Below are positions 672 through 40,226 of a stretch of 45,520 nt of DNA, piece after piece. Numbering within the stretch: the stretch's first letter is position 1; each line of letters opens with the position of its first letter. Position numbers and translations under genes: made by a program. The stretch is from positions 1-45,520 of IMG/VR virus record IMGVR_UViG_3300006638_000001; one strand, written 5' to 3'. This DNA is from a virus. The notes under the pieces were generated by a model. That model did no database searches. It had not been told where the DNA came from and worked only from the letters and a program-made list of their open reading frames with translations.

Positions 672-3194
672 TCACGCGAAGAAATAGGGTGAGTCGAGGA
701 TGACGTTGAGGTCGAGAGTTCCCAACGCGGGAGGAGCTGGACATTCTGTTGCGTCTTTGGCCTGTGCGCACCATTGCGCGTACAGACTGCCCACAACGTC
801 GTTATCACGGTACAGTGACACGAATGATTCACGAGTGGCGGCAGCCAGAATGCCTGTGTCACATGCGTGCGTGGAGTAGCTGTCGTGGACGCAACCAAAT
901 GCTGTTACACCACGCGACATTGCCAGCGTGACCGTCATCTCCAGTGCAGCAGCGTCCAGTGAATGCACCACGTTCGGCGCAATGGCGTTCCGCTGCTTGA
1001 GCGGGCGGATTGTGTCCAGTTGCTTGTGATAGCTAGGCTGAATGACTTTACCAGCCAGTACTGTTTTGATTTGCTTCTTTTCCGATTCGAAGTACTCTTG
1101 TCGGACAGGAAACCCCGTGACAGGAACGATCCACTCAACCGCTGTCCCGTTCGCTAATATCTGGAGCACCGCTTTCTGCATCCACTCCATTCCTTCACTA
1201 GCTGCCACAACCGTCTGTTGCAGCGCGTTCCAAATGAGCAACGCCATCAAATCACACGCTTCGTGGACAACTGACTTACCGGCTACATCTATGCACGTCG
1301 CACGGATGGTCTGCCAGTCGTCATGGCTGCGTAAGTAGTCACGGAGCTGGTCTGCGAACCCGTACTTCTTCGACCCGTACCCATATGTCATCGTTGGGCG
1401 CTTGGTCAGCTTGCGTGTTACCAGACTCGACTGGAGCCACCACAGAGCAACGGGATTAGTTGAAGCTCCCTCCGCAAGCGCGTCCAGAACGAGGTCAGCA
1501 ATCGTTTGATATATGTCATGTGGTGTTTGTGACGGTGAAAGGTTGACCGCTGCCCCACCAATAGGATCACGGAACATTGCCGAGAAGTGTTGGAGCCCAT
1601 TGCACGATCCATCTTGAGCAATCGGTAGATACGACACGAATCCTTCTTCACCACCAATGTTGAGAGCTGCCCACTCACAGCAGAACGCATAGAACTGCAA
1701 CGGTTTCTCTGCACACTCCGCCCACCACGTTTCTTCCAGTGGATTCATTGCAACGCCGATGATGTCTTGCGTGTGTGCGTCTATCCAGTCGATACGATCA
1801 TCCAGTGACCAACTGCTCATCTTGGCACCTTCCGGCGTCTTGTCGAGGCAATTAGCGCCATGCAGTGCTAACCATCTAGCTCCGTCTAGCCCCAAAGGCT
1901 TTCCTTCGGAGAACCGGAGTAGTGCTTTAGACAAGTCAGCGCCTTGCGGTGACAGAAACGAACAGATTGGGTAGATACGCCCCCGGAAGTCCAGATTATA
2001 CGCGAAGAAGATTGCATCATCATGCTCCAGAGTGTCCGCTACTTTCAGCGTGTGTGAGTACTCAATGGTGTGGACTACCCGTGCGTGGTTGCGCTCGTGC
2101 ACTGCGTGCTTTGCTTTGCGATACAGACGCCGACGCTCTTTGCTTACATCGTCATCGCCCGTGATGAGATTGTCGGGCGGCTTTGGTGGCATGGGCTCTG
2201 GCTCAAATGCCGGGACACCAGCGAGTGCTCTACCTGTCAGCTTGATCTTGCGCACCAGCTCCAGCACATGCGGATTAACTTGCCACGCTGTCTCTTGCAG
2301 TGCGTTGAGCGTGTCATACACCAGTGGCATCGTTGCGTCATCAAACCGAGCTTGCTGCACTCGTTTGTCACATCCTCGTACCAACGGGTGACGGCCACGG
2401 AGTGAGAATCGATATCCACCACGTTGCTTTGGCTGCCACCGAAGTGGTGGCACGACCATTGGCATTGCTACTGGCTGCAACAGAGCCAGCATATCGTTAC
2501 GCTTGGTCAGCCATTCAATGGTTTCCACGGCTGGGACCAACACGACTTCTTGCCGGATAGCTGTACGGCGTCCTTTGCCGTGTGTGTTCTTGACAATCCG
2601 TTTGGACTGTAGCTCCAGCATCCCTGTGGTTGATATGAGGATGTCCAAGAGCTTGCATCCAACCAGGAGCTTCGTGCTTTCACTCATGTCCAGGTCAGTC
2701 ACATCAACTTCCGCATACTTCGCCGTGGCTGCCATCGACTTCGCCATGTGTGCGTAGTTGGACGTGGTGAATGAGTTAAGCCGGTATTCGAATAGTCCCG
2801 GTGCTTGCTCTTGGAACCGTCGAAACCGTAGCTCATCCAGCATGTACTTGGTGATGGACCGTGCGACATCATTCAATGGCATCTTGAGTGCAAGCACGTC
2901 CAACACAGCTTTGACCATCATGTACGCTGTGACATCAGGACCGAGAAGCTGGACCCATTTGAACGCGCAGTGCTTCCCGCCTGACCTGTGCTCTACCAGG
3001 CCCACCCATGTGGTGATGCCAGCAGCGACTTTGCCAACAGCTTCGGACAGGAGTTTCTTGTTACCACCAACGTGTGCAGCGTTGCCAGCTTGCTCTGCGG
3101 CGATGAGGCGTTGACGGTATGCTATCGCACCATCGGCTGTAGCTTGGGACTCAAGGAACCGTTGACGCTCGACAAGGGATGCGTATGAGTCCAC
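672..3194 (-). CDS. Single-subunit DNA-directed RNA polymerase, T7 gp1-like
   Basis: 840 aa, GTG start. Colinear by eye with T7 RNAP: YNLDFRGRIYP (T7 YNMDWRGRVYA), DGSCNGLQHFSAMFRD (DGSCSGIQHFSAMLRD), ETWWAE..FYAFCCEW, TMTYGYGSKKYGF, APNVVHSLD, VHDSY, C-terminal SPYFFA (T7 SDFAFA). Confidence 0.97.
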   Translation of the reverse strand: MDSYASLVERQRFLESQATADGAIAYRQRLIAAEQAGNAAHVGGNKKLLSEAVGKVAAGITTWVGLVEHRSGGKHCAFKWVQLLGPDVTAYMMVKAVLDVLALKMPLNDVARSITKYMLDELRFRRFQEQAPGLFEYRLNSFTTSNYAHMAKSMAATAKYAEVDVTDLDMSESTKLLVGCKLLDILISTTGMLELQSKRIVKNTHGKGRRTAIRQEVVLVPAVETIEWLTKRNDMLALLQPVAMPMVVPPLRWQPKQRGGYRFSLRGRHPLVRGCDKRVQQARFDDATMPLVYDTLNALQETAWQVNPHVLELVRKIKLTGRALAGVPAFEPEPMPPKPPDNLITGDDDVSKERRRLYRKAKHAVHERNHARVVHTIEYSHTLKVADTLEHDDAIFFAYNLDFRGRIYPICSFLSPQGADLSKALLRFSEGKPLGLDGARWLALHGANCLDKTPEGAKMSSWSLDDRIDWIDAHTQDIIGVAMNPLEETWWAECAEKPLQFYAFCCEWAALNIGGEEGFVSYLPIAQDGSCNGLQHFSAMFRDPIGGAAVNLSPSQTPHDIYQTIADLVLDALAEGASTNPVALWWLQSSLVTRKLTKRPTMTYGYGSKKYGFADQLRDYLRSHDDWQTIRATCIDVAGKSVVHEACDLMALLIWNALQQTVVAASEGMEWMQKAVLQILANGTAVEWIVPVTGFPVRQEYFESEKKQIKTVLAGKVIQPSYHKQLDTIRPLKQRNAIAPNVVHSLDAAALEMTVTLAMSRGVTAFGCVHDSYSTHACDTGILAAATRESFVSLYRDNDVVGSLYAQWCAQAKDATECPAPPALGTLDLNVILDSPYFFA

Positions 3195-16244: not shown

Positions 16245-17921
16245 CTAATGCCGCTTCGGGCTGGCGTAGCTGAGGTTCCCCACACGCATTCCAACGCCGA
16301 GCACATTCTGGCCCCAATTCTTGAGTTCTTGGTCCAGTAGCGAGTCTTTGAACTTGTCGTGTGCTTTGGCTTGGTCGCGGCCCATCTTGTCTTCGAAGTA
16401 CGCGCACGCTCCGGCGAGAGCTTCTATACGGTCATCGTGAGCTAGAGCGCCTTTCATGCGTGCCATACGTGTGAACTGCTGCACGAATGAGTACTGAGAA
16501 TTGTCAGCTTGCTGCTTCAAGTCTTGCTCTATAACGCGACGATCTACAGTGAGCCGATGTGACTGGATGATTGGCTCCAGCACATCCAGGATGCGTCCTT
16601 CTTTCATCCCTCGTGCCCACTCAGCGTCCTCGACAGCCGAGCGGCCTATCTTCATGACCGCGGTACGGAGCATCTGCGTGAACATGCCACCGCCATAGTT
16701 GGGCTCCACAATGATCTTTGTGACCTTGTAGCGCGCCGCTATGCCAGCGAGTGCCTGCAACGTTTCCTCTGCAAACCCCGCTTTGTAGCCGCCGATGGCG
16801 AACAGGTGGAGCTGTGAGTACAGAATCTTGAGAACACAGTAGCTCGTCTCGTCACCACCACGGCCAGACGGATCGACAAACATGATCGCCTCAGTGTACG
16901 GCGCCATTTCATCAGACTTCCAAGCCGGACGGAAATAGTAGTCTCCGTCGAATCCACCGGGAGTCAGGTCTTTGATGCCATACTCTTTCTCTGAGCTGTG
17001 GACAACGCGGACGTGAGTCATGGTGTCGTCAAGCTGTGACACTATAAGGTCACGCAGCTTGAGCGGGTGCTTGTCTATCTCACTTGGGTTGGTGTCCAGC
17101 ATGAACTGGAGCGCATATCCACTACGGCCATATTCAGCCAGTCGCTTATCCAGCTCCTCTCTTGGGAATCGTGTCGGCTCCACTGGAGTGTGTGCCGGAA
17201 CTCCACGCTCCACCATACGCATGATGAACGGAGCCAGTGTGCCATGGTACGCTTCGGTGTGCTCCGGTACTTCTGCGGGCCACACCATGATCTTGTAGCC
17301 ACGAGCAGGGAGCCTGTTATACACTGACTGCTCTACCTGTGGTGTGCCTAGATACACGACGCGGCCCCCAGGCTTGAGCACGGCGCCAAACTCACGGATC
17401 AACTCCGCTATGCGCTCACGGAGTCCGTGGGCATACGAGTTCTTAGGCGTCTCAATGTCGTCAGGCACAATGATGTCTGCTCGTGATCCGGTGAGCTGTC
17501 CGGTGATACCAACGCTCTTGACGGATGGTGACAGGTCAGCGGTTGCCGGACCAACATCGAATGCCAGGTTGGAATCGCGCTGGTTCCCATGCGGACGCAA
17601 GTGCTGGAGCAGTGGCATGTCGAGCAGGCGCTTGCAGAACGTCGTGAAGTTTATAGCGTGGTCTTCCGACGCTGACACGACCATGATTTTCTTCTGTGGG
17701 TCAAGGAACAGGTGCCACAGTACAAACGAAACCGTGATCCACGACTTGCCTACACCGCGGAACGCTTCGATCATCAAGTGTGACGGGCCATGCTGAAGGT
17801 TGAAAGCCAGGTCATTCTGTACAGCAGTTGGGGCTGGGAGTCCCAAATAATCCCAAACTTGACGTAAGAAAACGCGAAAGTCGTCCAGCCCAGCCCGTTC
17901 TATCTCCTCTTGTGTGTACAC
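16245..17921 (-). CDS. terL: Terminase large subunit (T7 gp19-like)
   Basis: 558 aa. Walker A-like FRGVGKSW and Walker B-like DIIVPDDIE. Size and position after terS match T7 gp19. Confidence 0.9.
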   Translation of the reverse strand: MYTQEEIERAGLDDFRVFLRQVWDYLGLPAPTAVQNDLAFNLQHGPSHLMIEAFRGVGKSWITVSFVLWHLFLDPQKKIMVVSASEDHAINFTTFCKRLLDMPLLQHLRPHGNQRDSNLAFDVGPATADLSPSVKSVGITGQLTGSRADIIVPDDIETPKNSYAHGLRERIAELIREFGAVLKPGGRVVYLGTPQVEQSVYNRLPARGYKIMVWPAEVPEHTEAYHGTLAPFIMRMVERGVPAHTPVEPTRFPREELDKRLAEYGRSGYALQFMLDTNPSEIDKHPLKLRDLIVSQLDDTMTHVRVVHSSEKEYGIKDLTPGGFDGDYYFRPAWKSDEMAPYTEAIMFVDPSGRGGDETSYCVLKILYSQLHLFAIGGYKAGFAEETLQALAGIAARYKVTKIIVEPNYGGGMFTQMLRTAVMKIGRSAVEDAEWARGMKEGRILDVLEPIIQSHRLTVDRRVIEQDLKQQADNSQYSFVQQFTRMARMKGALAHDDRIEALAGACAYFEDKMGRDQAKAHDKFKDSLLDQELKNWGQNVLGVGMRVGNLSYASPKRH

Positions 17922-28976: not shown

Positions 28977-29023
28977 GCAAAAAAGCCGGGAGCAGAGGAG
29001 GTTGAGTCCATTGCTCCCGGCTT
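28977..29023 (-). terminator. Rho-independent terminator after the major capsid gene (T-phi-like position)
   Basis: Minus strand AAGCCGGGAGCA-17 nt-UGCUCCCGGCUU followed by UUUUUGC (with the stem-closing UU, a run of about six U). Confidence 0.8.
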
Positions 29024-29164
29024 GGTCATGCGGGTACTAAGGTGCTTGTAAGAAGGCTGACCTCGGTGCTGACGCGAGCTACGCCATACTTTGCGTAGAA
29101 GATACGAACTGTGCCCATGTTGCAGGGTCAGTATAACTATCAGCCTACAGACTACATTGTGCGA

Positions 29165-29959
29165 CTACGCGGTCTTGATTTCGACAGCCGCTTCTGGGCG
29201 CAGAATGCCGTGACCAACAGCGTACTTGCTCACGATGAGCGTACCCTGACGGCGAACGTCGTATGCGCTTTCAGTTGCAAGGTCGAGCAGCTTCACGGTG
29301 CCAACCGCGCTCTTGTGAGCAACGATTGCAACAGTCGTGGAGAAGTCACCCTGATACGCGGCAAGGCCAGTCGTGACATTGGTGCTCGGAATGTTGAGCG
29401 CCTTCACAACCGGGATACCACCAATGAGCATAATCTTGCCCGTGGCGATACCAGATTCCTGACCCGTGTTATACGCAAAGTCGCGGTTGGTGAGCTTGTC
29501 TGCGTTGAACAGGTTCCAGTACTGAGCGGGACGCAAGAAGATGGTGCGATCCTGCTCTGGGATGCTGTTCTCATCGAAGCGCTGAGCTGCCGCGAGAATG
29601 GACGCAACGAGGGAGTTGGCGCCAGCAGTCGTAGTGGTTGCAGCAGTTGCGTTCGTGATGACATACCCTGCTGGCAGGCCCGTGACGGTAGCAGCAGCAC
29701 GCGCGGCCAGAACGAACTGGGTAGCTACGTTGATGTCATACTGCTTCGCCAGAGCAAAGCCGAGCTGCTTGGTGTACTCGCCACGAACGTCGAAGTGTGA
29801 CATCGCCTGGTCGAGATTGTCGAGGAACGTGGAGGCGAGAAGCAGACCATCAATGCTAATCGTCTTTTCGGCCCCGTCGATTACATCGCCTGTAATCTCT
29901 ACGCCAGCCGTGTGATATGCAGCAACAGTGCGGCCAGTGGCTGGGAACTGTACGGTCTT
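29165..29959 (-). CDS. Major capsid protein, exon 2 (264 aa; T7 gp10-like)
   Basis: KTVQFPATGRTVAAY..EKTISIDGLL..AMSHFDVRGEYTKQLG..HKSAVGTVKL..SKYAVGHGILRPEAA is colinear with T7 gp10 KSAQFPVLGRTQAAY..ITIDGLL..AMNHYDVRSEYTSQLG..HRSAVGTVKL..AKYAMGHGGLRPEAA. The ATG at 29960..29962 in the track is assigned to the end of the insert. Confidence 0.85.
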   Translation of the reverse strand, partial: KTVQFPATGRTVAAYHTAGVEITGDVIDGAEKTISIDGLLLASTFLDNLDQAMSHFDVRGEYTKQLGFALAKQYDINVATQFVLAARAAATVTGLPAGYVITNATAATTTTAGANSLVASILAAAQRFDENSIPEQDRTIFLRPAQYWNLFNADKLTNRDFAYNTGQESGIATGKIMLIGGIPVVKALNIPSTNVTTGLAAYQGDFSTTVAIVAHKSAVGTVKLLDLATESAYDVRRQGTLIVSKYAVGHGILRPEAAVEIKTA

Positions 29960-30533
29960 CATTTGTGTTATAGATGCGCGCTGTACGCACCCGCTCTACG
30001 TTGCCGCAGAGATCAGACTATATCTTCCCTAGATACGCAATGGCGTTTGAAAGTCGCTTTGGTGAATCCTTAAAGAAGCCTAAGCCAGCGTTGCAGTTGC
30101 CGCACAGCAAGCCACGAACACGCTTGGTACGGTGGCAGTGGTCCACAGCGAAGCGTGTATATCGCTTGCTGTCGAGTTGCCGTTCACAAATGCCACACTT
30201 GCCCTGTTGCTCCTCAAAGAGTGCTTGGTATTCTGCTTCTGTTACTCCCAAGTCACGTTCCCGCTGACGTAGGATGATGCAGTCCTTACACTCTCTCCGT
30301 GTTAGCCCGCTTTCCGAGCGCACGTAGAAGTGATCCAAAGGCTTCGCGGTCATACACACGCGACATACTTTCTCTAGTGTTTCCTGTTTCGAGTCCGCTT
30401 GGACCCTACTCGCTTTCGCGATAGTCGTTGAACCTTCCCCGGTAATACTCTCGGGGCTTGGCTGCTGATTGGCCACTAGGGCTGTTCCAGCAATTAAGGA
30501 AATGTTTTTAGCGAAAGGCAAGAGGACTTACCA
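29960..30533 (-). mobile_element. Putative group I intron (574 nt) with a homing endonuclease ORF, interrupting the major capsid gene
   Basis: It separates two in-frame halves of a gp10 homologue with no residue lost. The 5' exon ends in U and the insert ends in G. P1 (GAAUGGU/GCCUUUC) and P10 (AAGA/UCUU) pairings are available. GNRA hairpins at 30410..30421 and 29994..30011. Confidence 0.7.
30018..30521 (-). CDS. Endonuclease VII-family (HNH-type) homing endonuclease ORF inside the insert
   Basis: C-terminal block GKCGICERQL..FAVDHCHRTKRVRGLLCGNCNAGLGFF..AIAYL matches the recalled T4 endo VII-type motif (DH.H....RGLLC..CN). Upstream zinc motif CRVC..CKDC. The true start is uncertain (the track start is TTG, and the 5' part may be ribozyme). 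Confidence 0.75.
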   Translation of the reverse strand: MPFAKNISLIAGTALVANQQPSPESITGEGSTTIAKASRVQADSKQETLEKVCRVCMTAKPLDHFYVRSESGLTRRECKDCIILRQRERDLGVTEAEYQALFEEQQGKCGICERQLDSKRYTRFAVDHCHRTKRVRGLLCGNCNAGLGFFKDSPKRLSNAIAYLGKI

Positions 30534-30689
30534 ACCATTCGCAATAGTGCGCTCCATGGCTTTGCCAAGGAATGCGGTTGCCTGCTCGAAAGCAGTCAAT
30601 ACCTCGCCGCTCCATATTTTAAGGAAGAGCGCGAGTGTGTCGCCGGAGCCATTGATTTGCCCAGCGAAGGATGGCGTTGCATTTGCCAT
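30534..30689 (-). CDS. Major capsid protein, exon 1 (52 aa)
   Basis: Not in the ORF track. ATG at 30689 encodes MANATPSFAGQINGSGDTLALFLKIWSGEVLTAFEQATAFLGKAMERTIANG. Compare T7 gp10 GDKLALFLKVFGGEVLTAF..MVRSISSG. Confidence 0.8.
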
Positions 30690-30867
30690 AGTGTGTTACT
30701 TCTTTTGTTGAAGGAGGAAACTGTGAGTGAACAACGGTTTCGACTTCCGCTCAACTGACTTTCACGCGCGCCTTGTCGGTCGCAACCGGGACGTGGCTAC
30801 TACGTAAGTGTTGTGGTGTGTCGGGTACTACAAGCGCATCACAATGTGATCGGCATGGTGACGTGCA

Positions 30868-30939
30868 ACAGACAGGGATGGCTACGATCCACCGACCTCC
30901 ACGTTTTCACCGTGGCGCTCTACCTCTGAGCTACCTGTC
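30868..30939 (-). tRNA. tRNA-Phe (anticodon GAA) with an unusual T-loop
   Basis: 72 nt: AGACAGG UA GCUC AGAGGUA GAGC G CCACG GUGAAAA CGUGG AGGUC GGUGG AUCGUAG CCAUC CCUGUCU G. The acceptor, D and anticodon stems are perfect. The T-loop has A54/U58 instead of T54/A58. No CCA is encoded. Confidence 0.7.
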
Positions 30940-31038
30940 TAAATGGGCCAGCACACACGGCGCGAAGGAGAGAGGAACGCGCCCACTGATACTTGTCTTA
31001 CGGGCCTCGTGGGGCATGTGTGTGCTAGCTGTACTGAT

Positions 31039-31482
31039 TTACTTCTTCTTACTGTCGAGCACCGCAGATACTATTGGTGCAGTAATTTTCTCGGCTGAAC
31101 GTCCAGCGATATAGCCCCCGATGCCGAGCTTAAGGAGCTGCCACATGTCAGGTGGAATAACGAGCGACTTGAGTGAGAACAGGGGAGCTACCACGTAGTC
31201 TTGAAAGATGATATACGTGAATACCAACATGAGCACCGGGCGCCAATTGCGCGCCATCCAGCTCTGCGAATCTGCTTCACTCTTGATTACTTCTGCTTGC
31301 GACTGTGCGAATGATATGTCCGCAGCCATCGCTTCTTTCTGATAGTTCGCTTCAAGCTCCAGCAACGCCTGCTGTGCTGCTAGCTTCTGCTCTGGTGACG
31401 CAACGAATTGATTTATGAGTCCTGTAACACCACCAACGAGCGACTTCCCTGGCCCCATAAGGAGCGAAAGTATTGAGCCCAT
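31039..31482 (-). CDS. Membrane protein, holin-like (recalled similarity to the 3-TM GTA-type holin family)
   Basis: 147 aa. Gly-rich N-terminus MGSILSLLMGPGKSLVGGVTGLINQF and hydrophobic segments WRPVLMLVFTYIIF / LLKLGIGGYIAG. Confidence 0.45.
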   Translation of the reverse strand: MGSILSLLMGPGKSLVGGVTGLINQFVASPEQKLAAQQALLELEANYQKEAMAADISFAQSQAEVIKSEADSQSWMARNWRPVLMLVFTYIIFQDYVVAPLFSLKSLVIPPDMWQLLKLGIGGYIAGRSAEKITAPIVSAVLDSKKK

Positions 31483-32354: not shown

Positions 32355-34031
32355 TTATCGCGCTTGTTGTGGCTGCGGCGGTGCCGATGGTTGACCGTTC
32401 TGAGTTGGCTGTGCAGCGGATGCCGCCTGTTGCGCTTGGTCACTACCCGCTTTGATTGCGGTAGGGCCAAGCTTCTGTGCCAGCTCGTGTTGCTGTTGCT
32501 GATTGACTTGCTGTTGCACGGCATCATCACTCCGGATCAATCCGGTCATGTCGATACCAAGCGCGGTGCCGCGACGCTTGAGGTAGCCGCCCACGTCCAC
32601 ATACTGTGCAACCACGGGTGGCCCGAAGTTCTGAGCAAGTCCTTGGAGCAGTACGTCTAGGCGCTGGAGGTCGGCATTGCGACCGAGTGCTTCCAGTCCT
32701 GTGACAATCGACGGGTTGACTGCCTGCTTCGGGAGCACTGGCAGCTTACGCTCGCGCTCCATCTGTGCCATCATGACCGACACCAGCGGACGCTGAAATT
32801 CTTCACCTAGGATGGAGTAAAAGCCACCGAGTCCCATTTCAAGGGAGTTGGCAAGGAGACGAATCTCCTCGGCTGTAACACGCTCAGCGTCTCGCTGTAC
32901 TGCGGTGTCGAGTAAGAATGCTTGCTCTAACCTGTGTTGGATTCCGTCTGCTACTTCCTTGGTAACTTTGAAGTCGTTGTACTTATCAAGAGTTACCGCG
33001 CCAACATCTTCTTTGTCGCCATCCAAGACATCGCCACTACGTGCAGCCGCAAGTTTGTTCTTGTCTGTGAGGCCATTCTCTTTGACGAGATAGACAACCT
33101 TGGCGGCAACAACGGAGAACCGGACGACGGCTTCGGTGAGGGACTCCAGAGATGACATGTCACCTTGGTACTCTTCAACGAACCCGCGGCCATAGTCTTC
33201 GTTCGTGATGTGTGTGAATCGAAGTGGAAGCCAAGGGGTCTTGTCGAGTGGGTATGTACCCTGAGTGTCGGGCACGATCTTTCCGCACGCCTCTTGATAC
33301 ACTTCCCACGTCTGCACGCCGGTGTCTGATTCTTTCCGTGACACGCGGGTGTACAGGTCGATTGTCTTGTCTGGGCTCGCGTCGTTCGCTTCCACAGCGT
33401 CGTTCGCTTCCACGATGGCGAGCACTTTGGGAGGCAACGACATCCGACTGAGCGACTGCTTGACGACTATCTCCAGCACGTTGCCAGACATGTCGCGCTT
33501 GACGACGTAGTTACTGAGCATGTGGAGCTGGAGCTTGCCAGATGGCAGCACTTGCACCAAGCCATTGCCGGCGACGAGGAGCTGCTTCAACGCTTCAAAC
33601 ACAATGGTCCGAGCGCCTACTTGCTCCAGCCGATTACACACGGCACGCTCAACGCGGCCAAGGGCTTCCTCCAGCGCACCGCGGGCGTCGTCGCCCATCT
33701 GCGGGTTGGCTTGGAACTTCTGAGCCAGCTTCGCCACAACAAAGTCATCCAGCGTGAGCCGGAAGAAACTAGAGCCGGGTGGCAGGAGAGCGAGCAGTAG
33801 CTTGGAAGCTAGGTTGTTGACCCCACGAGCACCTACGCTCTGGAATGGAGTCTCGTACATCGTTCCGCCATTCGCACCCTCCGGGGGAAACAGTCCGGGG
33901 ATCGTGTAAGCAGAAGCGGTACGCGCACGCAGCAGGTACGGCGCACGCGATGCTTGCAAGGAATCGTACCGCCCTTGCGCGGTCATTACTTGTGTCAGGC
34001 CAGAATCGGCAAGACTTTTCTTCTTGGTCAT
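32355..34031 (-). CDS. Portal (head-tail connector) protein, T7 gp8-like
   Basis: Start chosen at MTKKKSLADSG. ..SRAPYLLRARTASAYTIPGLFPP..YETPFQSVGARGVNNLASKLLLALLPP compares with T7 gp8 ..DRAPYETRAQNCAQYTIPSLFPK..YQTPWQAVGARGLNNLASKLMLALFP. Confidence 0.93.
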   Translation of the reverse strand: MTKKKSLADSGLTQVMTAQGRYDSLQASRAPYLLRARTASAYTIPGLFPPEGANGGTMYETPFQSVGARGVNNLASKLLLALLPPGSSFFRLTLDDFVVAKLAQKFQANPQMGDDARGALEEALGRVERAVCNRLEQVGARTIVFEALKQLLVAGNGLVQVLPSGKLQLHMLSNYVVKRDMSGNVLEIVVKQSLSRMSLPPKVLAIVEANDAVEANDASPDKTIDLYTRVSRKESDTGVQTWEVYQEACGKIVPDTQGTYPLDKTPWLPLRFTHITNEDYGRGFVEEYQGDMSSLESLTEAVVRFSVVAAKVVYLVKENGLTDKNKLAAARSGDVLDGDKEDVGAVTLDKYNDFKVTKEVADGIQHRLEQAFLLDTAVQRDAERVTAEEIRLLANSLEMGLGGFYSILGEEFQRPLVSVMMAQMERERKLPVLPKQAVNPSIVTGLEALGRNADLQRLDVLLQGLAQNFGPPVVAQYVDVGGYLKRRGTALGIDMTGLIRSDDAVQQQVNQQQQHELAQKLGPTAIKAGSDQAQQAASAAQPTQNGQPSAPPQPQQAR

Positions 34032-34090
34032 TCTGCTTGGCCTGTGTCCTAATAAGGTTCTTCGCACTATGTGGGAGGACTGGCGCCGGA

Positions 34091-37021: not shown

Positions 37022-37909
37022 TTACGCACGGTAGACTTCGCCCCGCCACACGCCCATGCCCTCGTGTATGTAGATAGGCTCCACGGACACCGCGCCTGTA
37101 GTTGGCTCGAATGTCAATACGACACAGCCCTGTTCCCAGTTTGGATCAACAACGTATTCGGGATCAAGCCGTGCAGTTGTGCCTGTCTCTACCCACACGT
37201 GACTACCGTTTGCATCGCGCCGATAGAACACACCTAGCCTATGTGTGTGCCCCGACGCACCGCTCTTTCCGTACTTCTCATGTTCTCCGGCTGCGGTGTA
37301 CGCGCTCTTGCTCCGCACCAACGAGCCATGTTTCAAGATGAACTTGGGCAGCAGGTGCTTCTTAGACTGCTCGCCGTACTGGTAGAACTCGCAATGCAAG
37401 CTCTCCAGATCAAGCAGCTTGGGCCACGTTATCGCTTTCTGGAAGGCCGTCAGCTTACCGAGCTGAGCTGCTGGCCCATCCATCTGCCACATGGCCCGCT
37501 GCATACGGTTTTCATGATTACCCTCAAGAAATATCATGCGACTGTTGGGACTAATCTTTCTGGCTTGTGCCAAGTGCGCGCGTGCCATGTTGATTTCATC
37601 TTGCAGACTTTCCTTTCTCGCTGGGTCTTTATCGAACCGAGACAAGGAGTACGCATCGCACAAATCCCCCATGTGGACCATGACTGTTGGCTGGAGCCGC
37701 TTCAAGACACCAAACACAACTGCTATGGCGCTATCGTCTTGGCTCGGGAAGTGTGTGTCCCCCCACAGTAATGCAGTAATCATCTTGCCCTTACGTGGAG
37801 CAACCGGCTTGTCGAACTTCACCGCGAACGGACGCACCGGAACTGTTAACAGTCCGGTAGGCGTCGGCAAGTATGGTGATTCTGTGTCGTCTAGTGTACG
37901 TCGCGCCAA
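37022..37909 (-). CDS. Calcineurin-like metallophosphoesterase
   Basis: 295 aa. Motifs WGDTHFP, HMGDLCD, EGNHE and GHTH occur in canonical order. Confidence 0.8.
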   Translation of the reverse strand: MARRTLDDTESPYLPTPTGLLTVPVRPFAVKFDKPVAPRKGKMITALLWGDTHFPSQDDSAIAVVFGVLKRLQPTVMVHMGDLCDAYSLSRFDKDPARKESLQDEINMARAHLAQARKISPNSRMIFLEGNHENRMQRAMWQMDGPAAQLGKLTAFQKAITWPKLLDLESLHCEFYQYGEQSKKHLLPKFILKHGSLVRSKSAYTAAGEHEKYGKSGASGHTHRLGVFYRRDANGSHVWVETGTTARLDPEYVVDPNWEQGCVVLTFEPTTGAVSVEPIYIHEGMGVWRGEVYRA

Positions 37910-39753
37910 GTAGCCCCCAGCTTCGCCTCACCCGTAAGGGGACAGCGAAAGTGAAAATGTTGTGTCATGTGTTCAATGGAAGCGATTGCTATTGCACCTG
38001 CTTCCTCTGCTATCTCGTCGCGCACTGCGACCTCTATCTCATCGTGGACCCACAAACATGCAGCCCACTTGCCGTCCCACCCCTGCGCACCAAACCGCTC
38101 CGTCATACGCCGGTTGAACTCCACGATCCATCTCTTACAGATCACAGCACCCGTGCCTTGTAGTAACGAGTTGAGTGCCGCATGTTCTGAGCGGATGAAC
38201 GTGAGTCGTCCGTCAATGAGCTTGAGGTATCCATTCTTCTTGGCCGATTCTTTTACCGCATCGGTCAGGTATGCCATAGCTGGAAGATTCTTGAGGAACT
38301 TCTTCCGCAGCTTTGCGCCAGCTACACTCTGCTGGTCGGGTGAACCGAGTGGCAGAATGATGGAGCCCAGCTTTTGATTTCCTGCGCCATAGAGGAATGC
38401 GTAACAAAATGTTTTCGCTATATCACGCCCTTCCTTCCCCTCCAGTCCGAGCGCATCCCTGTTGACCGCATGCACGTCACCATTGAGAATGACATCGACG
38501 TATGCACCGCCGTCATACTTCGCCATGTAGTGTGCCAAGCATCGCAGCTCCAGCCCACTAGCATCAGCGCCGAGCATCTTCCATCCCCGTGGGACAGTGA
38601 ACAGCTCACGGCACTCAGGACCATACGGGCTCGTCACCTTTGGCACTTGCCCAAGGTTTGGATGCATGTGTGCGCCGCGGCTCGTCACCGTACCACATGA
38701 TATGATTGATCCGTGGATGTGATACGCGCCAGTTATTGCGCCGCCTTGCGCGCCATCTTTGGTCGCATACTTGAGCCACGCCTGCTTGCCTTCGGACAAC
38801 TGCCCGAGTCGTTTGGACACAAGCAGACATTCGACCAGCTCCGGCAGCGCTGGGAAGTCCAGACCTTTCAGCGTGGCGTCGTTCATCTCCGGCTCGCCAC
38901 TCTCTGTGAACTCCGTCGGTTGCCAGCCATACAGTGCAGTGAGACGATTCGCTATGTGCTGCCGCGACTTCGGGTTGAACGTGATGGTTTTCTTCTTGAT
39001 GACCGGAACGCCCTTCTTGTATCCGAGAGTCCTGTTGTCGCGCTTAGGAGTGAACGGTTTACAGTCCACTTCCCACGAACCGAACACGTCGGCCAGGATT
39101 GACTCTAGCTCCGCACGCCGGCCAGCCAGAGTTGCGGCCAGAGTCGTTGCTTTAGCCATGTCAAAGGGCACACCATTTCTTTCTTGCTGTGCCAGATACC
39201 AGCCGAGCTGGTGTTCGGTGTCTATTGCTTCGGGAGAAATCTTCTGCTGACGGAGCATGTTCACCAGCTTCACCGTCACAGCAATGTCACCAACGCAATA
39301 GGCTGACATCTCCGGCGTCCACACGGCCCAATCAGTTGACTTTCCGTAGTCACCTTTACGCAGACCAAGACGATAGCCCCAAGCCTCAAGGCTGTGGCGA
39401 CCAATCAAGTTTCCGGGGAGTTTGTGCTGGCGCCAGCGTTTGAAGTCGGATTCTTTTATGTGCGCGAACCGCAAGCGTGCCATCAACAGTGTGTCACGTA
39501 CCTTGGACTCATCAAGGGTGAACGACGGATATACTTTGCGCAATGCGGGTATGTCGAAGTTGATCCCGTTGTGCCAATAGCTACGCTCCGCAGCCTGCAC
39601 GATGCGCAACCCCTCTGCGATTGGGACATAGCCCGGCTGATCTGCACAAGACAAAACTGCCCCGTCATCTAAACTGTGGATGGCGAGGCAGTGAATGGTT
39701 GTGAGCTGGTCAAGCAGGCCGTTGGACTCAAGATCACACACTATGTGACGCAT
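37891..39753 (-). CDS. Family A DNA polymerase with 3'-5' exonuclease (T7 gp5-like)
   Basis: 620 aa. Exo I VCDLESNGL, Exo II HNGINFDIPAL, motif A GADASGLELRCLAHY, motif B RDIAKTFCYAFLYGAG, motif C WVHDEIEV. Confidence 0.95.
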   Translation of the reverse strand: MRHIVCDLESNGLLDQLTTIHCLAIHSLDDGAVLSCADQPGYVPIAEGLRIVQAAERSYWHNGINFDIPALRKVYPSFTLDESKVRDTLLMARLRFAHIKESDFKRWRQHKLPGNLIGRHSLEAWGYRLGLRKGDYGKSTDWAVWTPEMSAYCVGDIAVTVKLVNMLRQQKISPEAIDTEHQLGWYLAQQERNGVPFDMAKATTLAATLAGRRAELESILADVFGSWEVDCKPFTPKRDNRTLGYKKGVPVIKKKTITFNPKSRQHIANRLTALYGWQPTEFTESGEPEMNDATLKGLDFPALPELVECLLVSKRLGQLSEGKQAWLKYATKDGAQGGAITGAYHIHGSIISCGTVTSRGAHMHPNLGQVPKVTSPYGPECRELFTVPRGWKMLGADASGLELRCLAHYMAKYDGGAYVDVILNGDVHAVNRDALGLEGKEGRDIAKTFCYAFLYGAGNQKLGSIILPLGSPDQQSVAGAKLRKKFLKNLPAMAYLTDAVKESAKKNGYLKLIDGRLTFIRSEHAALNSLLQGTGAVICKRWIVEFNRRMTERFGAQGWDGKWAACLWVHDEIEVAVRDEIAEEAGAIAIASIEHMTQHFHFRCPLTGEAKLGATWRDVH

Positions 39754-40226
39754 AAGTCTCCCTTGCTGTTGTTCTCCCAGGCCGTAAGAACTTGTAAGTT
39801 CCCAGCCTCATGCTTGCCACCTTTGCTCAGCGGTACGATGTGATCCACCTGATGTGCAACTCCGGTTTCTCTAGAAAGCCGGCGCGCCTCCGCATAAAAC
39901 GAGATGCACGTAGCGGGCGTATATGTTTCACCTATTACTGCACCCCGCTTCACGGCCAAAGCACGCCCCTGACTTGCCGCCCAGGCGTCTGGATTCCGGC
40001 GCCTCCATATGCGTACAGACGCGGTGGAAGGAGAATTGGTTCGGCGCCTCCACTCTTTGGTCCAAGCTATGGTACGCCGCCTCTGACAAATAATGCAATT
40101 TCGTGTCGCTACATGCCGTTCTGCAATATGCCCGTGCTTACAGGGCTTCCCTGTGAAATAGCGTCGGCTTCCAAAAGCAATAGCCTCAGCCCTAGTCATC
40201 ACCCCGAGTGCAGTATCAGAAATCAT
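39741..40226 (-). CDS. Free-standing HNH homing endonuclease with an N-terminal YFTGKPCxHGH zinc ribbon
   Basis: Start chosen at MISDTALGV (ATG 40226), overlapping the primase-helicase stop by 11 nt. HNH block HQVDHIVPLSKGGKHEAGNLQVLTAWENNSKG. The 3' end overlaps the DNAP start by 13 nt. Confidence 0.8.
   Translation of the reverse strand: MISDTALGVMTRAEAIAFGSRRYFTGKPCKHGHIAERHVATRNCIICQRRRTIAWTKEWRRRTNSPSTASVRIWRRRNPDAWAASQGRALAVKRGAVIGETYTPATCISFYAEARRLSRETGVAHQVDHIVPLSKGGKHEAGNLQVLTAWENNSKGDLCVT

Follow-up and report, generated by a model that had tools for sequence, protein, structure and literature searches.

In this work, we analysed a stretch of viral DNA of 45,520 nucleotides (nt) (IMG/VR record IMGVR_UViG_3300006638_000001, positions 1 to 45,520; the whole stretch is called the window below). 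Its genome is T7-like, and its major capsid gene is interrupted by a 574-nt insert on the minus strand. The evidence given below makes it highly probable that this insert is a mobile group I intron of subgroup IA2, which holds the gene of a putative homing endonuclease in one of its loops. The positions of the features are collected in Table 1.

The interrupted capsid gene and its intron

In the sequence of 29000..30900, the minus strand from 30689 to 30534 codes for MANATPSFAGQINGSGDTLALFLKIWSGEVLTAFEQATAFLGKAMERTIANG and then continues as TGG TAA, just as the original prediction, made from the letters of the window, had stated. The open reading frame (ORF) at 29165..29962 resumes the capsid sequence: its ATG start is formed by the final three bases of the insert and is followed by KTVQFPATGRT. 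When 30534 is joined to 29959, an in-frame protein of 316 amino acids (aa) is obtained (52 + 264 residues), in agreement with the join proposed earlier and with the ORF list. The joined protein matched the Pfam family Gp10A-like (PF21703) with an E-value of 6.7e-67 and 226.5 bits (cutoff 27) over profile positions 1-279 of 279, so that the spliced product is a T7 gp10-like major capsid protein, as had been recognised by eye. It is colinear over 100% of its length with uninterrupted homologs of 315-317 aa (80, 77 and 70% identity) and shows neither gap nor insertion at the junction, where ERTIANG|KTVQFPATGRT (the bar marks the junction) aligns with ERTISSGKTAQFPATGRT. The closest intron-less allele (L217, 80% protein identity) reads GGC|AAGACCGCACAG in its DNA at the equivalent point and has the same neighbours, namely the portal, the scaffold and the holin-like protein, followed by the capsid. 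An identical exon-2 protein is encoded on four assembled contigs of 20-50 kb, i.e., of phage-genome scale. For the spliced window capsid, we predict the junction-spanning peptide ..TIANGKTVQFPATGR. A 229-aa ORF on the plus strand at 29111..29800, antisense to exon 2, can almost certainly be dismissed as spurious, being produced by the codon composition of the other strand.

The Rfam group I intron model (RF00028) matched the minus strand at 30555..29994 with 74.6 bits (gathering score 50; E 3e-17, taken over the whole window) and over its full length (model positions 1-253), which bears out the group I assignment of the original prediction. The only other Rfam match in the window was one transfer RNA (tRNA), and a permissive search (E up to 10) of 29800..30700 found no competing family, including those of group II introns. 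Exon 1 ends in U and the insert in G, as noted before. We assign the insert to the group I introns, and its structure leads us to infer that it would splice itself in a guanosine-dependent manner. Two other candidates were rejected. An intein does not fit, as the exon-1 frame meets UAA two codons into the insert and the Pfam scan gave no intein domains; a group II intron is contradicted by the Rfam scan and by an ORF that encodes an endonuclease and not a reverse transcriptase.

The P3-P8 core, which had not been folded by eye, was found by the Rfam model and is supported by covariation across related introns. According to the Rfam alignment, the P8 loop contains the endonuclease ORF, and 33 nt are inserted between the 5′ strand of P7 and the 3′ strand of P3. 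P2 is absent, and P7.1 and P7.2, both of which covary, are joined by GUA. These are hallmarks of subgroup IA2, described for the DNA polymerase introns of T7-like phages as P1-P10 minus P2 with P7.1/P7.2 linked by G-U-A (PMC3428280), and by these criteria the intron belongs to IA2. Both GNRA-capped hairpins pointed out earlier are present and correspond to P7.1 and P9; the proposed P10 pairing of UCUU with the exon-2 AAGA likewise stood.

Table 1. Features of the capsid locus, the ribozyme, the related introns and the window genome
Feature	Position	Strand	Remarks
Exon 1, major capsid gene	30534..30689	minus	52 codons, MANATPSF...ERTIANG; last base U30534 is the 5′ splice-site U
Exon 2, major capsid gene	29165..29959	minus	264 codons + stop, KTVQFPATGRT...EIKTA
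Group I intron, IA2-like, 574 nt	29960..30533	minus	starts UGGUAA, ends ...AAAUG; G29960 is omega-G
P1	30542..30534 with 30519..30511	minus	exon GCGAAUGGU / internal guide GCCUUUCGC; U30534.G30519 at the splice site; loop contains in-frame UAA
P10	30523..30520 (UCUU) with 29959..29956 (AAGA)	minus	AAGA: first exon-2 bases
P3	30502..30497 with 30385..30380	minus	encloses P4 to P7.2
P4	30492..30487 with 30468..30463	minus	
P5	30482..30479 with 30475..30472	minus	
P6 + P6a	30461..30433	minus	
J6/7 + P7 5′ strand	30432..30422	minus	
P7	30426..30422 (GACUA) with 30020..30016 (UAGUC)	minus	
P7.1	30421..30410	minus	UCGC-GAAA-GCGA; then GUA linker
P7.2	30406..30391	minus	GGGUCC-AAGC-GGACUC
P8	30377..30373 (CUAGA) with 30033..30029 (UCUAG)	minus	loop of ~340 nt holds the endonuclease gene
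J8/7 (GGAAGAUA) + P7 3′ strand (UAGUC)	30016..30028	minus	endonuclease stop UAG 30020..30018 inside
P9	30011..29994	minus	CUCUGCG-GCAA-CGUAGAG
P9.1, probable	29990..29976	minus	inferred from the window sequence alone
Putative homing endonuclease ORF, maximal	30018..30521	minus	167 aa from TTG 30521; gene callers: GTG 30476, 152 aa
Insertion site A			after Gly codon GGU, before Lys; window, L091, L092, L093, L096, L055, L075, L116
Insertion site B			after ..K-S-A (GCU), before Gln/Thr codon of ..FP motif (Gln in three, Thr in L100); Ralstonia phages, L051, L033, L100
Class 1 ribozyme			IA2 with P7.1 + P7.2
Class 2 ribozyme	L001 1666..2180; L051 2485..3000; L075 2508..3003		compact, without P7.1/P7.2
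tRNA-Phe (GAA)	30868..30941	minus	between holin-like and capsid genes, ~180 nt upstream of capsid start
147-aa ORF	31039..31482	minus	between scaffold and capsid; counterparts GTA_holin_3TM (PF11351) in L090, L091, L217, L218
Portal	32355..34067	minus	
T7-type terminase	16245..17921	minus	
Single-subunit RNA polymerase	672..3194	minus	
Tyrosine integrase	7961..9112	minus	
Family A DNA polymerase	37891..39753	minus	
Primase-helicase	40216..41892	minus	

Covariation was evaluated in seven class-1 introns, from which the P8 loop was removed and the resulting mini-introns aligned on conserved junction anchors. A plain MAFFT alignment misaligned P1, P7.2, P3′ and P8 and was replaced by an anchor-guided structural alignment, N-padded for pair counting; the structure counted comprised 66 pairs, including P1, P10 and the P3/P7 pseudoknot. 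Standard pairs were found in 95.7% of the cells vs. 72.9 +/- 1.5% in shuffles, none of the 500 shuffles reaching the observed value, and only 36-45% pairing was obtained with partners slid by 1-3 columns. Compensatory changes, i.e., changes on both sides, were seen in 40 of the 66 pairs. P3, P7.2, P8 and P9 are 100% paired, with 5 of 6, 6 of 6, 5 of 5 and 6 of 7 pairs compensatory, respectively; in P7.1 this holds for two of four pairs, and P4 and P7 are invariant. Among the seven introns, five of the nine P1 pairs change on both sides, the guide covarying with the exon: exon and guide read GCGAAUGGU/GCCUUUCGC in the window, GAGAGUGGU/GCCUCUCUC in L092, GCCAGUGGU/GCCUCUGGC in L096 and CGUCUGGU/GCCUGACG in L055. 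The corresponding P10 and exon-2 sequences are AGAUUU/AAAUCU in L096, ACUCUU/AAGAGU in L055 and AAUUG/CAAUU in L033. Because the guide follows exon 1 and the P10 strand follows exon 2, both splice sites are fixed independently of the protein alignment, and the 5′ and 3′ sites proposed earlier proved to be correct.

These data bear directly on the alternative that a free-standing endonuclease gene really divides the capsid gene, two separately translated polypeptides co-assembling with no RNA splicing. An ATG (29962..29960) does happen to precede exon 2, and in the public annotations of Ralstonia phages the two capsid ORFs and the endonuclease VII are entered as distinct genes. However, this ATG has no Shine-Dalgarno sequence, and there is no start codon at the equivalent place in relatives, which read CUCG|AAA (L096), ACUG|AAG (L055, L075) and GAAG|CAG (Ralstonia phages). 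Moreover, exon 1 is cut within the invariant G-K-S-A-Q-F-P motif, and a complete group I core is present whose covarying P1 and P10 are fitted to the exact exon ends. We find a split gene of this kind hardly credible.

That the insert is a decayed intron of a defective phage or of a prophage remnant, giving neither splicing nor capsid production, also appears very improbable. The data are metagenomic only, and an integrase-encoding genome could persist as a prophage without selection on its capsid gene. Yet all the core helices are intact, the Rfam score clearly exceeds the threshold, both exons are open and conserved, the other hallmark genes of the window are intact, and the four contigs with an identical exon-2 protein speak against a remnant.

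The endonuclease, the related introns and their probable mobility

The internal ORF matched the Pfam family Endonuclease_7 (PF02945) with E 1.9e-24 and 85.8 bits vs. a cutoff of 23.6, in line with the Endo VII signature read from the translation earlier. Its best match in the PDB was the restriction enzyme Hpy99I (E 4.2e-10, residues 50-166, both CxxC..CxxC sets included), and T4 Endo VII was matched over the catalytic part (E 8.6e-6). The two Cys4 sets are CRVC..CKDC and CGIC..CGNC, the active-site residues are DHCH..R..N, and the motif of the window enzyme reads GKCGIC ... VDHCH ... RVRGLLCGNCN. When the family was aligned, the DHHRN residues (CX2C, D-H-x-H, R, CX2C and N) were all found to be present, in a C-terminal position, in the window enzyme and in each of the ten members aligned. 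Homing endonucleases with this DHHRN or Endo VII motif have been defined in PMC6083498, and the family already includes enzymes from the DNA polymerase introns of T7-like phages. By its sequence, the intron enzyme is a putative homing endonuclease with the Endo VII motif (DHHRN type, His-Me finger, two Cys4 zinc sites).

The conserved enzyme runs from the first CxxC (intron nt 169, 30365) to UAG 30020..30018, a stop codon that is part of the invariant AGAUAUAGUC element (J8/7 plus P7 3′ strand). For an ORF that fills nearly the whole insert, the original prediction had left the choice between a start well downstream and an overlap of the ribozyme core with coding sequence. The overlap stood: the 5′ part of the open frame covers the ribozyme from P1 to P3′, and the last codons and the stop lie in P8 3′, J8/7 and P7 3′, where the P8 3′ strand still covaries. 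The conserved enzyme itself is in the P8 loop. A fusion or read-through, with the endonuclease frame systematically in phase with exon 1, was rejected: 5 of 10 frames are in phase, all with intervening stops.

No DNA near-identical to the whole locus was found in GenBank phage records, and the window phage is therefore without a close cultured relative. In a protein search with the joined capsid, the Ralstonia phages DU_RP_I, RsoP1EGY, vRsoP-WF2, vRsoP-WM2, vRsoP-WR2, PY065YO380 and PY04L1 matched in two pieces with an "endonuclease VII" between them, while in their congener P-PSG-11 the capsid gene is uninterrupted. Among the best 80 capsid relatives in IMG/VR, 76 are uninterrupted, and in 4 the split falls at the same residue. 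Of the homologs of the window endonuclease in a large protein collection, the four closest that were looked up (P0002, P0003, P0011 and P0012; 51-65% identical) are each flanked by a ~53-aa ORF and a Gp10A-like ORF. A scan with the core motif AATCAGCAGCCAAG-N(12-40)-GGTTCAACGACTA revealed L116, whose capsid is 32% identical to that of the window, and L100. This motif occurs in at least 120 IMG/VR contigs (L097-L216); among the matches listed, two are in T7-like capsid genes, and only three of those 120 contigs carry a similar Endo VII-type endonuclease. With 2 of 120 listed matches in capsid genes, the pattern was rejected as a probe specific for capsid introns; it marks a common phage IA2 core, widespread in other phage genes.

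Altogether, eleven further intron-bearing T7-like capsid lineages were found, all with exon 1 ending in U and the intron in G, and an in-frame stop lies 1-3 codons past the 5′ splice site in all ten lineages surveyed. In the public annotations of DU_RP_I, RsoP1EGY and PY065YO380 (L001-L003, locus 1501..2960), capsid exons and endonuclease figure as separate genes; for RsoP1EGY, short hypothetical ORFs on both strands are given in place of exon 2, and for PY065YO380, the endonuclease is left without any annotation.

The capsid introns use two insertion sites, 9 nt apart (A and B in Table 1), and at both of them P1 and P10 match the local exon sequence. At site B, the spliced junction of the Ralstonia phages is predicted to be ...AAGUCGGCU|CAGUUCCCC, with the predicted junction peptide SGKSAQFPVIGK. 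The introns also fall into two ribozyme classes. At the Rfam gathering threshold, the Ralstonia loci gave no match, and a permissive RF00028 search scored 38.1 bits, below that threshold, so that the compact class-2 introns are missed by standard Rfam pipelines. Both classes occur at both sites: L033 and L100 have class 1 at B, and L075 has class 2 at A. The identity of the endonucleases tracks the ribozyme class and not the site, being 60-69% within class 2 and 39-49% between the classes, and the L033 endonuclease groups with class 1 at 51-61% identity. These comparisons may mean either that each lineage of intron plus endonuclease switched site at least once, or that related endonucleases colonised different introns protecting the same recognition sequence.

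Evidence on mobility comes from the patchy distribution of the insert, which 76 of the 80 IMG/VR capsid relatives lack, and from the genus Gyeongsanvirus, in which DU_RP_I is intron-plus and P-PSG-11 intron-minus. A comparison of the spliced DU_RP_I sequence with P-PSG-11 showed 18 differences in 63 nt (−46 to +17) around the insertion point vs. none in the adjacent 119 nt upstream and 170 nt downstream, with ~6% mismatches beyond +187. Such a bounded divergent tract looks like co-conversion, as would be expected of homing from a diverged donor. The target, R-[TS]-I-x-x-G-K-S-A-Q-F-P, is the most conserved local capsid motif: 41 distinct intron-less alleles all share R, I, G, K, F and P, a count to be read with the search pattern in mind, which itself demanded G, F and P and admitted only K or R at the Lys position. 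For the window compared with L217, no local dip in identity with a sharp tract was found at the junction, any signal being lost in noise at 80% protein identity.

We suggest the following course of events, the splicing steps being modelled on the RNA structure and the mobility steps on homology and comparison. The capsid gene would be transcribed as a single precursor RNA, in which the intron folds as a P1-P10 ribozyme. An external guanosine would attack after U30534, held in P1 by the U.G pair with the guide; P10 would align exon 2, and the freed 3′-OH of exon 1 would attack after the terminal G29960. Ligation would yield ...AAUGGU|AAGACC..., from which the full 316-aa capsid (..ERTIANG|KTVQFP..) could be translated, while the in-frame UAA two codons into the intron would halt ribosomes that enter unspliced RNA. 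It is most likely that the P8-loop endonuclease cuts or nicks those capsid alleles of co-infecting relatives which lack the intron, the predicted cleavage site lying in the DNA coding for R-T-I-S-S-G-K-S-A-Q-F-P, and repair off the intron-plus genome would copy the intron and short flanking exon sequence into the cut allele.

Two ribozyme classes, each with its own endonuclease sub-lineage and each at both sites, tempt one to go further and to see in the DNA coding for G-K-S-A-Q-F-P a contested hot spot of T7-like phages, colonised with at least two site switches. The endonucleases may then be weapons against intron-less co-infecting relatives, and either insertion site would give immunity, because each would destroy the shared recognition sequence. 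Interference competition of this kind has been shown for an intron endonuclease of phage PhiPA3 (PMC11620839). For the capsid introns, we offer it as a tentative idea, and the odds are rather against it.

Points against a mobile, functional intron

Several points weigh against the reading of the insert as a mobile intron that splices. First, the splicing is deduced from structure alone. Second, an alignment built by hand around the proposed helices favours the structure it is meant to support; yet invariant junctions limit where the strands can lie, and pairing collapses in the slide control. Third, the earlier P1 proposal, GCCUUUC (30519..30513) with GAAUGGU, was right as to the splice-site U.G pair but is to be corrected in one respect: the helix spans nine positions and has an internal U-U mismatch at −4 (30537 opposite 30516). 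This mismatch faces the third base of a codon and is present in 6 of 7 class-1 sequences, L091 having C-G. Over the introns of both classes, U-U was observed in the window, L092, L093, L096, L055, L033 and L051, and a Watson-Crick pair only in L091, L075 and the Ralstonia introns. Fourth, no near-identical intron-less sibling of the window phage was found; homing is thus not documented for the window lineage itself, since the closest intron-less allele is only 80% identical at the protein level.

The fifth point concerns the endonuclease start. No canonical in-frame start was found near the first CxxC of the window endonuclease; the only in-frame starts upstream of it are GTG 30476 (in P5) and TTG 30521 (at the P10/P1 boundary). 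As both sit within ribozyme helices and have no clear Shine-Dalgarno sequence, the enzyme could be poorly expressed or not expressed at all. A survey of the family revealed no consistent start: the positions vary between P10/P1 and the P8 loop, and certain members lack a start ahead of the first CxxC. A few codons before the first Cys, within P7.2, P3′ or the P8 loop, three relatives have an ATG, and L092 has a TTG there; the window, L091, L033 and the three class-2 introns lack a start at this place. In L033 (2428..3012, class 1, site B), the endonuclease frame is intact over 145 codons but offers no ATG, GTG or TTG ahead of intron nt 306; the start codon may have been lost, or a non-canonical one may be used.

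From this it might be argued that the intron splices and the capsid is made while the endonuclease is unexpressed or inactive, the intron being stranded and inherited vertically. In the window, the next starts after GTG 30476, GTG 30359 and ATG 30353, would remove the first zinc knuckle, which aligns with part of the Hpy99I fold, and the frame of L033 indicates that start loss does occur in the family. On the other hand, the frame is open over all of its 152-167 aa, none of the eight zinc cysteines or of the D, H, H, R and N residues is lost, and the sister intron in L091, whose homing endonuclease gene is 64-65% identical, retains the same long frame. Furthermore, ORF starts inside core helices are documented for IA2 introns of T7-like phages, Pf-WMP3 being a precedent for coding sequence that overlaps core helices (PMC3428280). 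We give a stranded intron a minor but real share of the probability. As the first zinc knuckle seems to belong to the fold, we favour an upstream start, with an N-terminal extension coded by the ribozyme core sequence.

Genome context, significance and comparison with known systems

The position of the integrase near the RNA polymerase suggests a temperate or integrase-bearing T7-like lineage, and the gene order suggests a circular permutation of the contig with respect to the standard T7 map. The position of the holin-like gene between scaffold and capsid is unusual. At the intergenic position that holds the tRNA-Phe in the window, L217 has a tRNA-like gene (L217 2231..2303), for which ARAGORN gives an aberrant anticodon loop; in L096, a tRNA-Asn lies downstream of the capsid gene.

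The practical consequence is one of annotation. In several cultured Ralstonia biocontrol phages and in many metagenomic T7-like phages, "capsid / endonuclease VII / capsid" needs to be annotated as one spliced gene, and the split annotation affects both capsid-based phylogenies and gene-count statistics of T7-like phages. If the intron works as proposed, a late, very highly expressed capsid gene would depend on efficient ribozyme splicing. The intron-plus DU_RP_I and vRsoP-WF2 and the intron-minus P-PSG-11 are all cultured, belong to one genus and share the host species Ralstonia solanacearum, thus providing a natural system for studying homing, marker exclusion and the question of whether an intron lowers or raises the fitness of small lytic phages. 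The twin sites, each with two ribozyme classes, make a compact case for how introns and endonucleases change sites. A specialist will find the mechanism unsurprising: what is new is the capsid gene as host, and the twin-site pattern is the most interesting by-product. The value for the specialist lies in the annotation fix, in the breadth of the family and in a cultured intron-plus/minus pair that makes homing and competition directly testable.

The textbook group I introns of phages are those in the T4 genes td, nrdB and nrdD (sunY), with mobile endonuclease ORFs looped out of the ribozyme and with homing and co-conversion of flanking exons established. They differ from the window intron in carrying endonucleases of the GIY-YIG or HNH type, located in P6 or P9 loops, and in residing in nucleotide-metabolism genes of myoviruses. 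The mobile DNA elements of T4-related phages are treated in the review PMC2988022.

Group I introns are also known in capsid genes, namely in mycobacteriophage LittleE (Cluster J), where splicing was demonstrated by reverse transcription PCR, and in lactococcal phage Tuc2009 (PMC3706429). As in the window, the intron lies in the gene of the major capsid subunit, U is the last base of exon 1 and G that of the intron, and there is a putative homing endonuclease. In contrast, these phages are siphoviruses with unrelated capsid sequences and another intron subgroup, and the LittleE endonuclease, LAGLIDADG-like and encoded on the opposite strand, is unlike the window enzyme. The large-terminase intron of roseophage DSS3_VP1 (PMC8323127) is similar in that a group I intron with an Endo VII-type homing endonuclease sits in a conserved late or structural gene. 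Its enzyme is a detectable homolog of the window enzyme (34% identity), although the host gene and the phage family differ. Among the DHHRN endonucleases (PMC6083498), the window enzyme shares CX2C, DHxH, R, CX2C and N, with the motif placed C-terminally as in the "endonuclease clade". It differs from F-CphI, which is free-standing beside an intron, in being encoded inside the intron and in having another predicted target gene.

The closest resemblance is to the IA2 introns that lie within DNA polymerase genes of the T7-like phages PhiI and W31 (I-TslI in both), Pf-WMP3 (I-PfoP3I), K1F and Xanthomonas phiL7 (PMC3428280). These belong to the same phage group and share with the window intron the P1-P10 fold without P2, the P7.1/P7.2 helices joined via GUA, the 5′ U.G pair, the short P10, the omega-G and a His-Me finger endonuclease ORF that overlaps core helices. 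The differences are in the host gene, which is the major capsid gene in the window and the DNA polymerase gene in those phages, and in the status of splicing and cleavage, which for the window are predicted only. Moreover, the window endonuclease lies in the P8 loop, unlike the Pf-WMP3 ORF, which begins in P6a, and it has the Endo VII motif with two Cys4 sites, unlike I-PfoP3I of the HNH family with its C-terminal HNH motif (PMC3428280). A paper on a capsid-gene intron in a T7-like phage was not found in the literature, the coverage of which was incomplete, so that this is absence of evidence only and we make no claim of priority. The insert in the window thus represents a known kind of selfish element, residing in a gene and in a phage group where it has apparently gone unnoticed.

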